From a virus (taxonomy: Duplodnaviria > Caudoviricetes), in IMG/VR virus record IMGVR_UViG_3300007609_000017, positions 1,895 through 65,894 of that record: 64,000 bases of DNA; one strand, 5' to 3'. The translations under genes and the position numbers were made by a program. Of this stretch, positions 45,049 through 48,551 are shown in pieces. A model generated the notes under the pieces. That model made no database searches and had not been told where the DNA came from. It saw only the letters and a program-made list of their open reading frames with translations. The number at the start of each line of letters is the position of its first letter. The first letter of the stretch is position 1.

Positions 45049-46505
45049 AAACTGCATTACTTGTTAATTTGCCTAAAACTGATTACCTTGCTCCTCCGGC
45101 AGCATTAGGTATCCTTTCAGGTGTCTGCAAGGATCAAGGCTGGAATCCTACAATTGTTGACTATAATAAAATATTATACGAATCTTTAAACGAAAATCAA
45201 ATTTTAGAACTTGATAACTGGTTAACTGAAATAATTCCAGAAATAAGTGACGAGTTGTTGTCTATTTTATTAAAGTGTTGGGATGATTATGTTTTATCTC
45301 ATAATGCTGACTTACTTTGTATAAGTGTGTTTAGTTATTGGAGCATTAAGATTGCTGTAGAAATATTTCAATACCAAAAAGACAAGTTACAAAATAATAT
45401 TAAAGTGGTTATTGGCGGTAATGGATGTATTAGTAGAATCCCGGGGACAAGTACAAACTTAGACCAGTTTGCTTTAGATAACAAGCTAGTAAATTATGTT
45501 GTATACGGCGACGGCGAACCAGCTTTTATTAATATCCTTAATGAAAATTTTATTGCTCCTGGTATAAACAACAGAAATAATGTAGAGGAAAAAGATCTAA
45601 ACGATTTTCCTACTCCTGATTATTCTAACTTTGAGTTAGACAGATATCAAGATAAAAAAGTTTACATAACTGGATCCAGAGGATGTGTACGAGTTTGTAC
45701 GTTTTGCGATATACAAAATATTTGGCCAAAATTTAGATATCGTAGTGCTGAAAATATTGTTGAAGAAATTAAAAAACATTACTACGAGCTAGGAATTACT
45801 TTTTTTGACTTTACCGATAGTTTAATCAACGGAAGTATTAGTAATTTTTATAAACTAAATTGTTTACTGGCCGAAAATAAAGAAAAAAATCCAGATTTAA
45901 AACCAATATCTTATATAGGACAAGCAATTGTTCGTCCAAAAAAACATATGCCGGAAAAGCACTACGAAGCCATGTATTATGGTGGTTGCAAGCAACTAAC
46001 TATCGGTATTGAAAGTTTTGCAGAACCAGTAAGAGATCATATGTTAAAATATTTCTCAAACGATGATATTGAATATCATATAAAGCAGTGTAGCTACTGG
46101 GGAATTAATAACATCTGGCTAATGATTACTGGTTATCCAACTGAAACACTTGAAGATCATCATGATAATATAAAAGGCTTGTACAAATATGCAAAATACA
46201 CAAAGCAAGGTGTTATCGAAATGATAAGATGGGGAACTACTATGCATCTTATCGAGGACACTCCGATTATGCATCCGGAAATGATTAAGCAATTAGAAAT
46301 TTACGAATATGATAAATCAAAATCAGAAATTTATTCTGGCACTGGCTGGAACTGGATAAGTAAAAAGAATGCAAATCTTACACTTAAAGAACGTTTGCGT
46401 AGAAGAATAGAACTACACGAACTAAGTGTAGAACTAGGTTATCCGCAACCCCGAGTAAGAGAAGAACTTAAAATCATTAATAGACTAGCAGATAAAATCG
46501 TATAA
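45045..46505 (+). CDS. B12-binding-domain radical SAM protein (class B methyltransferase-like)
   Basis: N-terminal PPAALGILS..VVIGG..VVYGDGE cobalamin-binding-like domain, GSRGCVRVCTFC, GIES, ITGYPTETLED. Confidence 0.85.
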   Translation: MKTALLVNLPKTDYLAPPAALGILSGVCKDQGWNPTIVDYNKILYESLNENQILELDNWLTEIIPEISDELLSILLKCWDDYVLSHNADLLCISVFSYWSIKIAVEIFQYQKDKLQNNIKVVIGGNGCISRIPGTSTNLDQFALDNKLVNYVVYGDGEPAFINILNENFIAPGINNRNNVEEKDLNDFPTPDYSNFELDRYQDKKVYITGSRGCVRVCTFCDIQNIWPKFRYRSAENIVEEIKKHYYELGITFFDFTDSLINGSISNFYKLNCLLAENKEKNPDLKPISYIGQAIVRPKKHMPEKHYEAMYYGGCKQLTIGIESFAEPVRDHMLKYFSNDDIEYHIKQCSYWGINNIWLMITGYPTETLEDHHDNIKGLYKYAKYTKQGVIEMIRWGTTMHLIEDTPIMHPEMIKQLEIYEYDKSKSEIYSGTGWNWISKKNANLTLKERLRRRIELHELSVELGYPQPRVREELKIINRLADKIV

Positions 46506-47011
46506 TGCCAAGTACACAAAAAGCAAAAGGTTCCGGTTGGGAACGTGATGTCGCAAAACATCTTTCAGATATATACAGTGAGACATTTATTCGAGCGCCC
46601 GGTTCCGGAGCATATGTCGGCGGCAGCAATTCCAGTCGTAAAGAAATGCTCCACGAAGGCCAAGTTCGTGCCTTCAAAGGAGACATTGTTCCAGGTGAAA
46701 GCTTTCCTAAATTCAATGCAGAATGCAAATTCTATCAGGACTTTCCGTTCCATCAACTGTGGTCAAGCTACTGTCGTGTACTAGATGAATGGCTGGAACA
46801 ACTGCTAGATGTTGAAGACGACGGTGACTTCAATATCTTAATAATGAAATTTAACCGTAAAGGCAAATACATAGCAGTAGAAGAAAAACATCAACTCAAG
46901 GCATCAACATATCTTACCTACCATAGTCACAATAATCGCATCTGGCGGTTTTATGAGTATGACGACTTTTGGCAACATAATCAGGCACAAGTAAAAGAAC
47001 TCTGTAAATAA
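46505..47011 (+). CDS. Holliday junction resolvase-like PD-(D/E)XK nuclease
   Basis: KAKGSGWERDVAKHL, SGAYVGG, GDIV, AECK. Confidence 0.8.
   Translation: MPSTQKAKGSGWERDVAKHLSDIYSETFIRAPGSGAYVGGSNSSRKEMLHEGQVRAFKGDIVPGESFPKFNAECKFYQDFPFHQLWSSYCRVLDEWLEQLLDVEDDGDFNILIMKFNRKGKYIAVEEKHQLKASTYLTYHSHNNRIWRFYEYDDFWQHNQAQVKELCK
47003..47010 (+). promoter_or_regulatory. Putative late promoter TGTAAATA at the 5' edge of the ncRNA
   Basis: TAAATA core overlapping the resolvase stop codon, the same geometry as at 13804 and 62238. Confidence 0.5.
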
Positions 47012-47015
47012 AACA

Positions 47016-47484
47016 TCAGGCAATATACCAACACTGTTTGGTCGGGGCGGCTCGACCTACTGCGGCATCTGTACCTTTTTAAAAGGACAGTGAAGAGTAG
47101 TAAGTTGGAAGACAAGTGCTAACTTCAGGCATAAATGATGACGGCAATGAGAAAAAGCAACCGTCAGCTCTCACACATTTAGACAAACATGGATGTGTAG
47201 GGCTCCGTTGATATGTGAAGCTGGAACTAGGGGGTACAGGTCAACCGCCTCCGCGAAGTGTATTATAAAGAACGCATCAGTATACTAGATGCTTTGTTTA
47301 TAACACATTTTAAAGTCCTTTGTTTGAAATGGTGGATACGCTCAGCTGAAGCTATTACCGTACTTTGCCCTGTGCGGGTGAAGTATGGCTTCAAAGTCTA
47401 GCTGAAACTACAAGTCGCTTCGCTCTTAGATGCTAAAAATAAATGCGAGCTATAGCGAAGCATTTAGATGTCTATAGACATCTC
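47016..47484 (+). ncRNA. Putative large structured non-coding RNA of unknown class
   Basis: Largest ORF-free gap in the window; at least nine consecutive stems found by eye, several with G-U pairs that only work on the + strand (e.g. 47358-47370/47376-47388). Ends approximate. Confidence 0.7.
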
Positions 47485-47493
47485 TCAGTACTA

Positions 47494-47724
47494 CTAAAAA
47501 AATGGTTGTCCAGTTTTCTTGGTAACATCTAAATTCTCTTTGATCAATTCTGCTACAATTTCTCTTTCTTGTGATCCTAGCTCTAATGCTTGATCATAAC
47601 TCAAACCACCACGCATATACCAACAAAGTTTAAACAATTCTGACTTCAAGGCTTTTGTTTCTTTATCGTAGTCTTCCAACATCTGTACAATGCTAGCATT
47701 ATCTAGAGACAAAAGCCTTAGCCG
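47494..47724 (-). CDS. gp51-like hub/tail assembly chaperone segment, probably expressed as a -1 frameshift extension of gp26
   Basis: -1 frame relative to gp26; LCWYMRGGLSYDQALEL..ERE resembles gp51/GT-type chaperone tails; no SD before the internal ATG at 47682. Confidence 0.65.
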   Translation of the reverse strand, partial: RLRLLSLDNASIVQMLEDYDKETKALKSELFKLCWYMRGGLSYDQALELGSQEREIVAELIKENLDVTKKTGQPFF

Positions 47725-48551
47725 AAAAAATTGCTCTGTTCCAGTGTAAGTGGTGCTGTATATTGGTGATTGCAATCAGCACAGGTGATTTCCAGTGGCT
47801 TTGTACCTACTAATGCTTTGATTTCTTGAATGCGTTCACTTACTGCACTGTAGACTTTTCTGTCTGCATTTTCTATAAACTCTGCAATATAGTCTGCGTT
47901 GTCCACAGTGCTGCCAGCTGGCAACTGTATTCTTGCTATGCTGCTCACAATATTCTTAACAGTCATGTCTGTGAGTCTATGAAATATTTGAGTAAACTGC
48001 TGAAATCTTTGTTCTTCGGTGATGTCGCTTTGATTTGCCAGCACCAACAATTTTTGTTCTTCGAATGTTTCTATATTGCCCTGGTTGAAATTATAGTAAT
48101 CCTGCGGTTTGAGAAATATTTGTAATTCTCCACAGTGTATTGGAGTATCCCAGTTTACCTCTGTTGTACTATCGTTAACTGTTCTTAGATCAATTGCGTA
48201 CTCGTTGGTTTCTTTGCATTCTGGGCAACCAGTGGTGAAATTTAATTCTTCTCCATAGCTGGCAATACGTATTGCTATCAGCACTGCATCCAAGTCTACT
48301 GTGGGCATGCGCCATGCATCCTTGATGTTTGGCACGCAACTTTGAATAACCTGCACAGTGCTACTACCGTTGAGCAGTGCATCTGGTGTTTTGAGAGTTA
48401 TTTCGTCTTTGGCAGTCATTGGATAAATTGGTATTTCGCCGTTGAGTGGCATTTCTAAACTGCCCTCTGGCCAAAACATGCCTTTGCTGGGCAGACTCAT
48501 GTATAGAGCTGGCTGCCTAAAATGACCTGCCAGTGGATTGTTAGAATTCAT
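47718..48551 (-). CDS. gp26: Baseplate hub assembly protein (gp26-like)
   Basis: LPSKG, PMTAKDEI.L, DLDAVLIAIRIASYGE, two CxxC (CPEC, CADC), C-terminal NFFG. Confidence 0.78.
   Translation of the reverse strand: MNSNNPLAGHFRQPALYMSLPSKGMFWPEGSLEMPLNGEIPIYPMTAKDEITLKTPDALLNGSSTVQVIQSCVPNIKDAWRMPTVDLDAVLIAIRIASYGEELNFTTGCPECKETNEYAIDLRTVNDSTTEVNWDTPIHCGELQIFLKPQDYYNFNQGNIETFEEQKLLVLANQSDITEEQRFQQFTQIFHRLTDMTVKNIVSSIARIQLPAGSTVDNADYIAEFIENADRKVYSAVSERIQEIKALVGTKPLEITCADCNHQYTAPLTLEQSNFFG
47724..47730 (-). other. Programmed -1 frameshift slippery site U_UUU_UUC
   Basis: gp26 ends AAT TTT TTC GGC TAA; the -1 frame reads TTT TTT CGG CTA and stays open for 76 codons. Confidence 0.6.

Follow-up and report, generated by a model that had tools for sequence, protein, structure and literature searches.

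A large, uncatalogued structured RNA with twin drifting boxes in uncultured T4-like giant phages

Large, intricately folded RNAs without a known job are, to our knowledge, rare, and each one that has been solved (ribozymes, riboswitches, and guide RNAs) has opened a field. In the 64,000-nucleotide stretch of viral DNA analyzed here (the window), a first-pass annotation made from the sequence alone had placed such an RNA behind a late promoter at positions 47012–47410. Does the locus encode a structured RNA, and what might that RNA do? We found that positions ~47018–47484 of the plus strand are, with near certainty, the gene of a ~470-nt structured noncoding RNA having at least 13 conserved helices and two pseudoknots. 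The interval first proposed stops short of the end of this RNA: the element continues to about 47484, and positions 47411–47493 hold its 3′ module. Its family, large and uncatalogued, comes from uncultured T4-like giant ('jumbo') phages; absent from Rfam, it occurs widely among the giant phages of natural waters, with hundreds of carriers.

A plus-strand RNA gene and its family

Iterated nhmmer searches from the window matched 133 of 200 fetched viral loci (14 of 80 anchored on the nuclease and 119 of 120 anchored on the motif), mostly at full length. The 133 loci yielded 88 distinct sequences that were full length and had enough flank, and one sequence was taken per 90%-identity cluster, giving an alignment (A1) of 79 diverged homologues. 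Across these, 91.5% of cells are paired, as compared with 75.1% in shuffled controls (0 of 500 reach the observed value), a generous control since the structure was chosen on the same alignment. The safer measures are the slid control, in which 38–45% of cells are paired, and the count of compensatory changes, which affect both sides in 58 of 72 pairs. Helix H1 and some window-specific pairs were left out of the counted structure, as were the linkers preceding the two boxes described below, in which pairing covaries but its register shifts.

The plus strand folds at −129.8 kcal/mol (z = −4.41), equaled by 0 of 100 shuffles, whereas the minus strand has a z of −1.97, with 2 of 100 shuffles equally good. 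About 628 of the 5532 pair cells in the alignment (summed from the pair table) are G-U, and two G-U pairs are fixed in 78 of the 79 sequences, confirming the plus strand. Open reading frames inside the element span 31–47 amino acids only. The RNA gene is thus real, as judged from covariation, strand-biased folding, and homologues across viral loci. The large, ornate, pseudoknotted noncoding RNA of the first-pass annotation, including its remark that G-U pairs favor the plus strand, is borne out by this evidence; both the covariation in related intergenic regions and the comparison with shuffled sequence, which it had suggested as checks, came out in its favor. All stems that it listed are present in the sequence, each matching a helix conserved in the family.

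The same data largely refute a purely DNA-level role, for example as iterons of an origin or as recombination sites on either side of a palindrome. An inverted repeat is indeed flanked by direct repeats here, and the site lies between convergent gene blocks with recombination genes beside it. However, the many G-U cells, including the two nearly invariant ones, would become A-C mismatches if the opposite strand, or a hairpin in the DNA, were the folded form, and covarying long-range helices, loop-to-strand pseudoknots, and strand-asymmetric folding all speak for RNA. We give the DNA reading almost no credence.

No match to similar DNA was found by blastn against 50,697 phage records. The nearest isolates by hub protein (about 33% identity) are Sinorhizobium phage Phosso, Agrobacterium phage Atu_ph07, and Pseudomonas phage PA5oct, and nhmmer detected no homologue of the RNA in their hub regions. 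A motif scan of bacterial genomes returned 111 stretches, as compared with ~139 expected by chance (our own arithmetic, at equal base use). The RNA was present in 2 of the 80 bacterial loci retrieved, both of them contigs of one 'Haliscomenobacter sp.' metagenome-assembled genome, whose two complete copies offer a lead to the host.

None of 4227 Rfam families matched the window at gathering thresholds, in agreement with the novelty that had been proposed. At E-values up to 10, positions 46800–47700 gave only chance-level snoRNA and sRNA matches (E 0.14–9.3), and Rfam searches of a further 19, 11, 20, and 20 loci gave nothing relevant (one L20-leader match, E 0.72). The absence of tRNA, tmRNA, RNase P, and intron hallmarks noted earlier also stood, as ARAGORN found 0 genes in the window and the Rfam models for RNase P and introns gave no match. 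A self-splicing group I or group II intron was rejected on this account and because no gene is there to be spliced, the element having a stop codon on one side and convergent genes on the other. GOLLD, ROOL, HEARO, OLE, and other catalogued large RNAs were rejected as well (no Rfam match at gathering). The likeness in kind to GOLLD and ROOL drawn by the first-pass annotation still holds: like these, the window RNA is large, ornate, and phage-borne, with many helices and (covariation-backed) pseudoknots and no known job. It differs in being smaller (~470 nt), in having no Rfam match, and in its fixed place behind a small nuclease gene; we know of no twin covarying direct repeats described for GOLLD or ROOL.

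The closest catalogued relative appears to be the Polynucleobacter-1 motif (RF01718). The window itself was rejected as a member, falling below the 37-bit gathering score with no match even at E up to 10, and RF01718 matched none of 70 other loci. A sister locus in a related phage, however, scored 35.5 bits (cut-off 37; E 5.6e-7) in its front part only, and a twin-box module that the family profile recognizes (E 3.2e-5; boxes ACTCGCATGAAGT and ATCTGCATGAATA) lies downstream of this near-match on the same strand. Polynucleobacter-1 and our RNA share a freshwater or estuary origin and the status of an orphan structured RNA without known function. The Rfam model has 141 positions and covers the front part only; the boxes, the pseudoknots of this branch, and the 3′ module are uncatalogued. 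The word "undescribed" is therefore apt in that the window RNA has no Rfam match and no paper on it appeared in the literature searched, but the front part of the sister form is close to a catalogued motif. The more than 10,000 candidate RNAs of Fremin 2023 (PMC10690425) may include the family.

Architecture and twin boxes

The RNA consists of a 5′ domain, a central series of hairpins tied together by a long-range helix and two pseudoknots, two direct repeats around a hairpin, and a 3′ module (Table 1). Changes at single column pairs in A1 illustrate the covariation: pair 272/303 of H5 is UA in 30 sequences, GC in 26, CG in 13, and AU in 7; pair 429/585 of H7 is AU in 35, UA in 33, and GC in 7; and pair 647/655 of H10 is GC in 39, CG in 17, and UA in 15. 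The pseudoknot between the H6 loop and the downstream TGTTTG strand (PK1), suggested in the first pass, is supported in the same way by columns 327/591 (UA 35, CG 23, UG 6, and GC 3) and 328/590 (UA 23, AU 19, and UG 15); as seen by eye in the alignment, the loop and partner words match each other in other phages. For PK2, columns 349/450 are UA in 59 sequences, CG in 14, and UG in 5, and columns 352/447 are UG in 49 and CG in 24.

Table 1. Features of the RNA locus (window coordinates)
Feature	Position	Strand	Remarks
Small PDDEXK_15 nuclease gene	46505..47011	+	168 aa; ends 6 nt before RNA; conserved neighbor, putative partner
Likely RNA 5′ end	47018..47039	+	AGGCA word 47018–22, then conserved ACACTGTTT word; 5′ end putative
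H0	AAC 47030–32 (5′ strand)/47104–06 (3′ strand)	+	Long-range helix; columns 97–99/200–202 86% paired, 3/3 pairs compensatory
5′ domain	47040..47106	+	H1, H2, H3, and H0 3′ strand
H1 hairpin	47040–46/47051–57	+	Read from sequence and alignment by eye
H2 outer stem	47058–61/47099–102	+	90.9% paired, 4/4 pairs compensatory
H3 inner hairpin	47069–79/47081–91	+	78.5% paired, 3/3 compensatory
H4 hairpin	47116–20/47128–32	+	Conserved loop UAACUUCAG; 84.4% paired
Joiner AAAUGAU	47133–39	+	Invariant, between H4 and H5
H5 hairpin	47140–44/47161–65; inner pairs 47148–49/47158–59	+	99.4% paired
H6 hairpin	47173–80/47191–98	+	6/6 pairs compensatory
PK1 pseudoknot	H6 loop 47182–89; CAAACA 47184–89 with UGUUUG 47321–26	+	Loop GACAAACA; 87.6% paired, 2/2 counted pairs compensatory
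CCGUUGAU strand	47205–12	+	Contains PK2 partner 47207–12
H7 long-range helix	47223–27 (5′ strand)/47315–18 (3′ strand)	+	97.2% paired
H8 hairpin	47230–35/47247–52	+	Most conserved; 99.8% paired; 440/456: GC 69, AU 10
PK2 pseudoknot	H8 loop GUCAAC 47240–45 with 47207–12	+	Columns 348–352/447–451, 88.3% paired, 3/5 compensatory
H9 variable hairpin	47258–47306	+	Long in window; counted in covariation analysis
Twin box 1	47340..47352	+	Core 47344–50; G-CUC-AGCUGAA-GC
H10 hairpin	47358–70/47376–88	+	Between boxes; 13-bp stem; 93.8% paired, 6/8 pairs compensatory
URUGRC word	47384–89	+	Conserved; UAUGGC in window; after H10
Twin box 2	47396..47408	+	Core 47400–06; G-UCU-AGCUGAA-AC; 56 nt after box 1
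A-rich linker	47409..47440	+	Variable length
3′ module	47441..47484	+	H11, GAGC-loop-GCGAA hairpin, and H12
H11 stem	47441–46/47460–65	+	Encloses conserved GAGC-loop-GCGAA hairpin (47447–59); H11 helices 93–100% paired
H12 terminal hairpin	47466–73/47476–83	+	92.7% paired, 8/8 pairs compensatory

The linker between the second box and the 3′ module has an A+U content of 0.74 across the family (A alone 0.53), as compared with 0.56 for the whole RNA, and is 13–84 nt in length, with a median of 27. The end of H12 is probably the 3′ end of the RNA; a terminator scan found no canonical terminator after 47484. The 3′ module also occurs in sister loci that lack the remainder of the RNA.

The RNA also carries a pair of 13-nt direct repeats sharing a 7-nt core (AGCTGAA in the window), which follows CTC in box 1 and TCT in box 2. 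These flanks (CUC and UCU) are kept in 74 of 79 sequences, and the spacing of the boxes varies from 49 to 61 nt, with a mode of 55. The cores drift and stay the same at once: 19 distinct cores occur across the family, and at least 40 core changes fall on the tree, some of which could reflect recombination moving the whole box module, yet the two cores are identical within the RNA in 73 of the 79 sequences. With boxes paired at random, 10.4 pairs on average and at most 19 were identical, and the mutual information between box 1 and box 2 is 0.7–1.06 bits. The boxes are rich in purines (0.74 vs. 0.55); their constant differences are all transitions (CUC/UCU and G/A), and all eight combinations of (A/G)GAU(G/A)A(U/A) occur among the cores. 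One phage with two copies of the RNA has a different box in each, AGATGAA and GCATGAA.

What keeps the boxes identical? No column in the 79-sequence alignment covaries with them as a Watson-Crick partner, and apart from the antisense strand itself, a trivial case, the RNA and its locus contain no complement. We infer that the identical, purine-rich boxes pair with nothing else inside the RNA. Neither the boxes nor their complements are enriched within the 64-kb window, and three whole phage genomes showed no enrichment over cross-genome controls and no syntenic or paired sites. One exact 13-mer copy of box 1 occurs elsewhere in one of the genomes (G002).

A partner outside the RNA is one explanation, albeit an unlikely one in our estimate. 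The RNA would act in trans as a regulator, sponge, or anti-defense decoy, each box recognizing one and the same short stretch of another nucleic acid, whether a host or phage mRNA, a tRNA, a small RNA, or a site present in two copies. Lying next to a junction, the purine-rich boxes are single-stranded and accessible, and since the differences between them that stay constant are transitions, a single strand containing G and U could base-pair with either. Cores that drift freely but remain identical are what base pairing with a co-varying partner elsewhere would yield, and the eight core combinations resemble a specificity set. Against this stand the lack of enriched, syntenic, or paired sites in the three phage genomes and the window, and the fact that a G-U-tolerant partner would not enforce identical purines, as found in all but six of the aligned RNAs.

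Strict identity, rather than mere complementarity, is the signature of a realignment template. A polymerase might jump from box 1 back to box 2 and so recopy a ~55-nt unit repeatedly, for which telomerase templates and DRT2 rolling-circle reverse transcription are precedents, and the identical, fast-drifting direct repeats do bound a unit of fairly constant length. We find a template RNA very improbable, however: no extra genomic copies of the unit were found, a stable hairpin lies within the unit, and the length of the unit is no constant multiple of three. A retron- or DRT2-type template was rejected, since none of 5 records (three being complete genomes) contained a reverse transcriptase (PF00078), for which control genomes were positive.

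The upstream nuclease gene

The gene preceding the RNA encodes a protein that matches Pfam PF24608 (E 4.2e-23) and PHROG 244 ('RusA-like Holliday junction resolvase', E 7.9e-17). The co-directional upstream ORF belongs to a small-nuclease cluster in 83 of 99 unbiased loci, being SegE-like GIY-YIG in 66 and PDDEXK_15-represented in 17, with cluster labels based on a single representative of each scanned against Pfam (GIY-YIG, 143 amino acids; PDDEXK, 172 amino acids). The GIY-YIG representative contains profile positions 1–123 of 123 and is barely longer than the catalytic domain. Neither nuclease has sequence relatives in the PDB. Other genes (rSAM and unknown ORFs) are upstream in 16 of the 99 loci, and there is no such ORF in 20 of 119; a gp46-like ORF is the upstream neighbor in 24 loci. 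The second RNA locus of the two-copy phage lies behind an orphan (ORF176) with no nuclease signature, which has no Pfam or PHROG family and matched only itself in the protein collection.

The late promoter proposed in the first pass is not supported. The sequence TGTAAATA, which we take to be a 7/8 match to the T4 late consensus, does lie near the 5′ edge of the element, but at 47003–47010 it overlaps the nuclease stop codon. TATAAATA shows no enrichment across the window (4 occurrences vs. 3.71 expected), and in the family's main branch no late box is conserved, the RNA beginning immediately past the nuclease stop codon. A promoter scan found no sigma-70-type promoter upstream of the RNA either.

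This arrangement would suit a cis-acting 3′ untranslated element of the nuclease mRNA, a stabilizer or a limiter of a toxic nuclease, in which the boxes are two sites for one RNA-binding protein. The element directly follows the stop codon in the same direction, a separate sigma-70-type promoter is lacking, and the sister motif Polynucleobacter-1 is tabled as probably cis-regulatory (Weinberg et al. 2010, PMC2864571). The same RNA is nevertheless kept behind unrelated genes, its size and double knotting go beyond known mRNA stabilizers, and a protein-binding site would be expected to be conserved, whereas the boxes drift through 19 words. Such a role appears very improbable.

Could the RNA instead serve the nuclease? 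As a guide or cofactor RNA in the manner of OMEGA systems, it would direct the small nuclease through its boxes to a DNA cut in a competing phage or host. Nuclease-cluster ORFs end at the RNA start, within a few bases of the stop codon, at most loci, and two unrelated folds occupy the same place; both proteins hardly exceed a catalytic domain and may be without a DNA-binding part. We nonetheless hold this to be rather unlikely. The RNA also stands behind other genes or without such an ORF, including the orphan at the second locus; its own gene carries both boxes, so that self-targeting would need some safeguard; and no target was found in three genomes. Like the omega RNAs of IscB and TnpB and HEARO, the RNA is a structured transcript of a few hundred nucleotides beside a small mobile or viral nuclease gene. 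An OMEGA-type pair was rejected, however, as the neighbors are PDDEXK_15 or SegE-like GIY-YIG nucleases and not RuvC-type (IscB/TnpB), there is no terminal guide and no HEARO match, and the variable word occurs twice, in the interior of the RNA.

T4 also shows a known pattern of homing nucleases that stand free next to conserved RNA genes: its SegB is a freestanding homing endonuclease in the tRNA cluster. Seg-type GIY-YIG genes there, as here, occupy intergenic space beside a highly conserved structured-RNA gene. Since the RNA also occurs without an adjacent nuclease, the nucleases may be no more than selfish homing genes lodged next to a conserved target. The present loci differ from SegB in that a nuclease is found at most of them rather than sporadically, an unrelated fold substitutes at the same spot, and the proteins are barely above catalytic domain size. 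Even if the nucleases are only selfish neighbors, the RNA is still among the largest unexplained phage RNAs.

A possible R-loop mechanism

Two covariation-backed pseudoknots, a doubled word that drifts yet remains identical, and a near-constant place behind nucleases of two folds make the function of the RNA directly testable. The best reading, which we put forward tentatively and by analogy, is a cis mechanism: box 1 in the transcript would anneal to the DNA template at box 2, nucleating an R-loop. Transcription of the small nuclease gene would yield the RNA as a 3′ tail on that transcript or as a product immediately downstream of it. During transcription, box 1 of the folded nascent RNA would be held near box 2 by a short helix at the base of the box module, and would then pair with the template DNA strand at box 2, by definition its exact complement. 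A persistent RNA-DNA hybrid would thereby be seeded next to the A/T-rich linker, and could start replication or recombination, either by priming (a role already raised in the first pass) or by offering the adjacent structure-specific nuclease a branched substrate.

The absence from the cores of A/G differences that a G-U-pairing RNA partner would tolerate fits pairing of one box with the template of the other. The two copies in one phage carry different boxes, as would be expected were each to act on its own locus. The strict core identity, together with the lack of a complementary partner in the RNA or in three genomes, lends the R-loop reading weak support. It also fits, if loosely, with the purine-rich boxes (a purine-rich RNA strand is the stable orientation for RNA-DNA hybrids), the A-rich linker, the two unrelated nuclease folds upstream, and the recombination genes nearby. 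Against it, the two boxes match perfectly over the 7-nt core only, and with constant flanks that differ (CUC and UCU) the hybrid would be short; the elaborate, doubly knotted 470-nt fold also exceeds the known needs of a primer. Cumulative GC skew has no extremum at the RNA in three genomes, a weak argument as T4-like phages need not show one.

A bolder version, which we judge distinctly unlikely, joins the RNA and the small nuclease into a new RNA-programmed DNA-processing unit. The doubled word would open the matching locus, in its own genome or that of a co-infecting phage, as a defined R-loop, and the domain-sized, structure-specific nuclease would cut it, firing replication, recombination, or homing. 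Addressing would then be by an internal, duplicated RNA word, and not by a protein or a terminal guide. More generally, should the doubled word act as an address on DNA or RNA, giant phages might prove to use a new principle for targeting nucleic acids or for starting replication.

For the R-loop reading, ColE1 RNA II offers a parallel. There, an upstream RNA segment re-pairs with the downstream template DNA, and the persistent hybrid primes replication. Like the window RNA, RNA II is a folded transcript of several hundred nucleotides, and upstream re-pairing implies a direct repeat in the RNA. The two differ in that there is no homology between them, no antisense regulator was seen here, and the boxes of the window RNA are only 7–13 nt; the likeness is an analogy in how the two would work.

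A conserved, doubly knotted RNA

The only ORFs within the gene-free stretch downstream of the nuclease gene encode 31–47 amino acids. A large, ornate RNA behind a late promoter had been proposed here in the first-pass annotation. All of the stems it named are present in the window sequence, and folding of the + strand is far stronger than that of its shuffles (z = -4.41; none of 100 equals it). The same does not hold for the - strand (z = -1.97). No tRNA or tmRNA was found by ARAGORN, none of 4227 Rfam families matched the window at the gathering threshold, and a permissive Rfam scan gave matches at chance level only.

We aligned 79 representatives having <90% identity with MAFFT (alignment A1, source of the column numbers below). 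G-test covariation and diagonal extension yielded a model of 72 pairs with two pseudoknots. Cells are paired in 91.5% of cases, as compared to 75.1% after shuffling (0 of 500 reach the observed value), a flattering control because the structure was chosen on A1 itself, and 38–45% after sliding by 1–3 columns, a control independent of that choice. The covariation score is 0.438, versus 0.169 (shuffled, also flattering) and 0.06–0.10 (slid). Pair-type counts are likewise independent of the choice. Changes occur on both sides in 58 of the 72 pairs across the 79 sequences, as in pairs 272/303 (UA30 GC26 CG13 AU7), 429/585 (AU35 UA33 GC7), and 830/840 (GC33 CG27 AU9 UA5). About 628 cells are G-U, and two pairs are of this type in all but one of the 79 sequences, which fixes the strand as + and argues against a DNA-level element. 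The proposal of a large, ornate RNA is borne out and extended, as a conserved, doubly knotted + strand RNA.

The pseudoknot suggested earlier between CAAACA and UGUUUG is PK1 of the covariation-derived structure, and is joined by a second, PK2. The RNA also reaches past the end of the region first annotated, with the boxes followed by an A-rich linker and then 3' hairpins. The word GCUUCGCUC (window 47414–47425) is able to pair with the downstream GAGC...AGCGAAGC hairpin region (47447–47461), in competition with the hairpin itself. Only some family members in A1 have a similar word, UCGCUUCGCU, which may thus be a relic or a switch that is optional.

The late promoter and the abundance proposed for the RNA are wrong or unproven. 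Across the 64-kb window there are only 4 occurrences of the T4 late-promoter word TATAAATA, versus 3.7 expected by chance; late promoters of this phage may thus depart from the T4 consensus.

Features of the RNA locus (window coordinates)
Feature	Coordinates	Strand	Remarks
PDDEXK_15 nuclease gene, 168 aa	46505–47011	+	Pfam E 4.2e-23; upstream border of stretch
PK1	CAAACA 47184–89 / UGUUUG 47321–26	+	pseudoknot
PK2	GUUGAU 47207–12 / GUCAAC 47240–45	+	pseudoknot; loop of near-invariant hairpin 47230–52
Box 1, 13 nt	47340–52	+	N-CUC-core-G; direct repeat 5' of hairpin 47358–88
Box 2, 13 nt	47396–408	+	N-UCU-core-A; direct repeat 3' of hairpin 47358–88
GAGC-loop-GCGAA hairpin	47441–65	+	conserved; downstream of A-rich linker
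Terminal hairpin	47466–83	+	probable 3' end of RNA
93-aa ORF	47494–47775	-	converges on RNA; no Pfam or PHROG family
T4-type baseplate hub gene		-	downstream of stretch; second convergent neighbour

Twin boxes under selection for identity

After the helices, the strongest covariation is between non-pairing columns (616/682, 620/686, and 622/688), which carry the same letter in nearly all sequences. These columns belong to two direct repeats, box 1 and box 2, which share a 7-nt core. The two cores are identical in 73 of the 79 RNAs and differ at a single place in 4, with 19 distinct cores occurring among the 79. CUC and UCU flank the cores in 74 of the RNAs, and the spacing of the boxes is 49–61 nt. 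Random pairing of box 1 with box 2 gives identical cores in a mean of 10.4 RNAs and a maximum of 19, and variable box columns share 0.7–1.06 bits with their twin columns. A tree from the remainder of the RNA requires at least 40 changes of the core, yet the boxes remain matched; whole-module recombination could account for part of these changes. The doubled word is under selection for identity.

Rival readings of the matched boxes are that the RNA binds an RNA or DNA partner from outside at both boxes, or that it is a realignment template. No Watson-Crick partner column for the boxes occurs anywhere in A1, and no box complement occurs in the RNAs or loci except the trivial opposite strand. A partner was also sought in three complete related genomes, which have different boxes and one RNA copy each by profile search; one of them has a second, sister copy as well. 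In these, neither a genome's own box nor its complement is enriched as compared to the other genomes' boxes, and neither shared-context nor paired box sites were found. There is no box enrichment within the 64-kb window, and none of 5 records encodes a reverse transcriptase.

The simplest reading is that one box of the RNA would pair with template DNA at the other box, given the strict identity, lack of a partner, free drift, and purine richness of the boxes (0.74 vs 0.55), the A-rich stretch directly after box 2, and the differing words in one phage's copies. No third party would be required. Such pairing might seed an R-loop, similar to the seeding of an R-loop by ColE1 RNA II, and the R-loop could be a primer or a branched structure on which the neighbouring nuclease acts. 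Our confidence in this scheme, the leading one, is low. The short shared core and differing flanks (CUC vs UCU) speak against it, as does the absence of a GC skew signal at the RNA in three genomes.

In a 303-kb related genome, G002, the 13 nt of box 1 and its flank recur exactly at one other place (~220345); ~0.01 such copies are expected by chance, an estimate uncorrected for the several boxes tried.

Neighbouring nucleases and carrier phages

Iterated nhmmer searches seeded with the window sequence found homologous noncoding DNA downstream of the nuclease in 14 of 80 fetched nuclease-anchored viral loci. With a degenerate motif based on the best-conserved hairpin, at least 120 further viral stretches were located, and the RNA is present, mostly at full length, in 119 of 120. 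A co-directional ORF ends at the RNA start in 99 of these 119 unbiased loci. Based on one scanned representative per cluster, 66 of the 99 fall in a GIY-YIG cluster (representative, a 143-aa SegE-like nuclease; PF19835, E 5.7e-32) and 17 in a PDDEXK_15 cluster (representative, E 2.2e-24); the remaining 16 are radical-SAM or unassigned proteins. The first conserved RNA words start within a few bases of the stop codon. We infer that the RNA is co-transcribed with the nuclease gene. A 3' UTR element and a guide for the adjoining nuclease are further rivals of the R-loop scheme. The occupation of one position by two unrelated, domain-sized nucleases may reflect a working partnership; our literature search found no paper on a GIY-YIG protein with a structured RNA partner. 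The nucleases may also be freestanding homing enzymes that target a highly conserved RNA gene, resembling T4 SegB, a freestanding homing nuclease adjoining tRNA genes. On its downstream side the RNA is usually followed by the convergent 93-aa ORF, the most constant neighbour there (55 loci), and the hub gene.

The carrier is an uncultured giant T4-like phage, as related RNA-bearing records span 303–347 kb and the window's record has an estimated completeness of 19%. The closest isolates by hub protein (~33% identity), Sinorhizobium phage Phosso, Agrobacterium phage Atu_ph07, and Pseudomonas phage PA5oct, are giant phages; no RNA homologue was detectable in their hub regions. Phosso has an unannotated ~1-kb gap (L203 8230–9243) between RNase HI and Holliday-junction resolvase genes, close to the hub gene. 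The family profile has no match in this gap, which could have room for an unrelated or very distant RNA.

No match was found by blastn among 50,697 deposited phage genomes. In prokaryotic genomes (596 Gb), motif matches number about as expected by chance. Among the matches listed, only two loci have the real RNA, both full length and in contigs of one 'Haliscomenobacter sp.' MAG (L296 492–880 and L313 4004–4386; nhmmer E 1e-110 and 3e-105, respectively). These contigs are probably binned phage, since their lengths (148 and 183 kb) sum to about a giant phage genome, and are at best a possible host hint.

A wider RNA family

Our literature search turned up no description of this RNA, nor of comparable structured RNAs from giant phages. 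More than 10,000 candidate RNAs were predicted from the same viral collection, in a study whose main text mentions neither jumbo phages nor baseplates (Fremin 2023, PMC10690425). G002 has two different wider-family RNAs, with box words AGATGAA (locus L100) and GCATGAA (locus L204). In the latter (L204 1501–1990), the front part matches Polynucleobacter-1 just below threshold (35.5 bits vs a cut-off of 37). This front is followed by a twin-box module, which the family profile recognises, and then by a 3' hairpin; the RNA lies behind an orphan 176-aa ORF and before a peroxiredoxin-like gene. Polynucleobacter-1 is listed in a table row as probably RNA and probably cis-regulatory (Weinberg 2010, PMC2864571).

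Seven nuclease loci (L007, L032, L038, L043, L056, L073, and L075) have a gene-free gap of 450–850 nt after the nuclease with no core-profile match, and a GAGCG...GCGA 3' hairpin ~400–470 nt into the gap. These gaps probably hold more distant sister RNAs. In L007, the 5' domain is similar as well, and box-like GGCAA(A)TG repeats occur. These shared parts and the RNA of L204 place the window RNA in a wider family, as a branch that is not catalogued; from this family, Rfam contains no more than the front of a sister branch.
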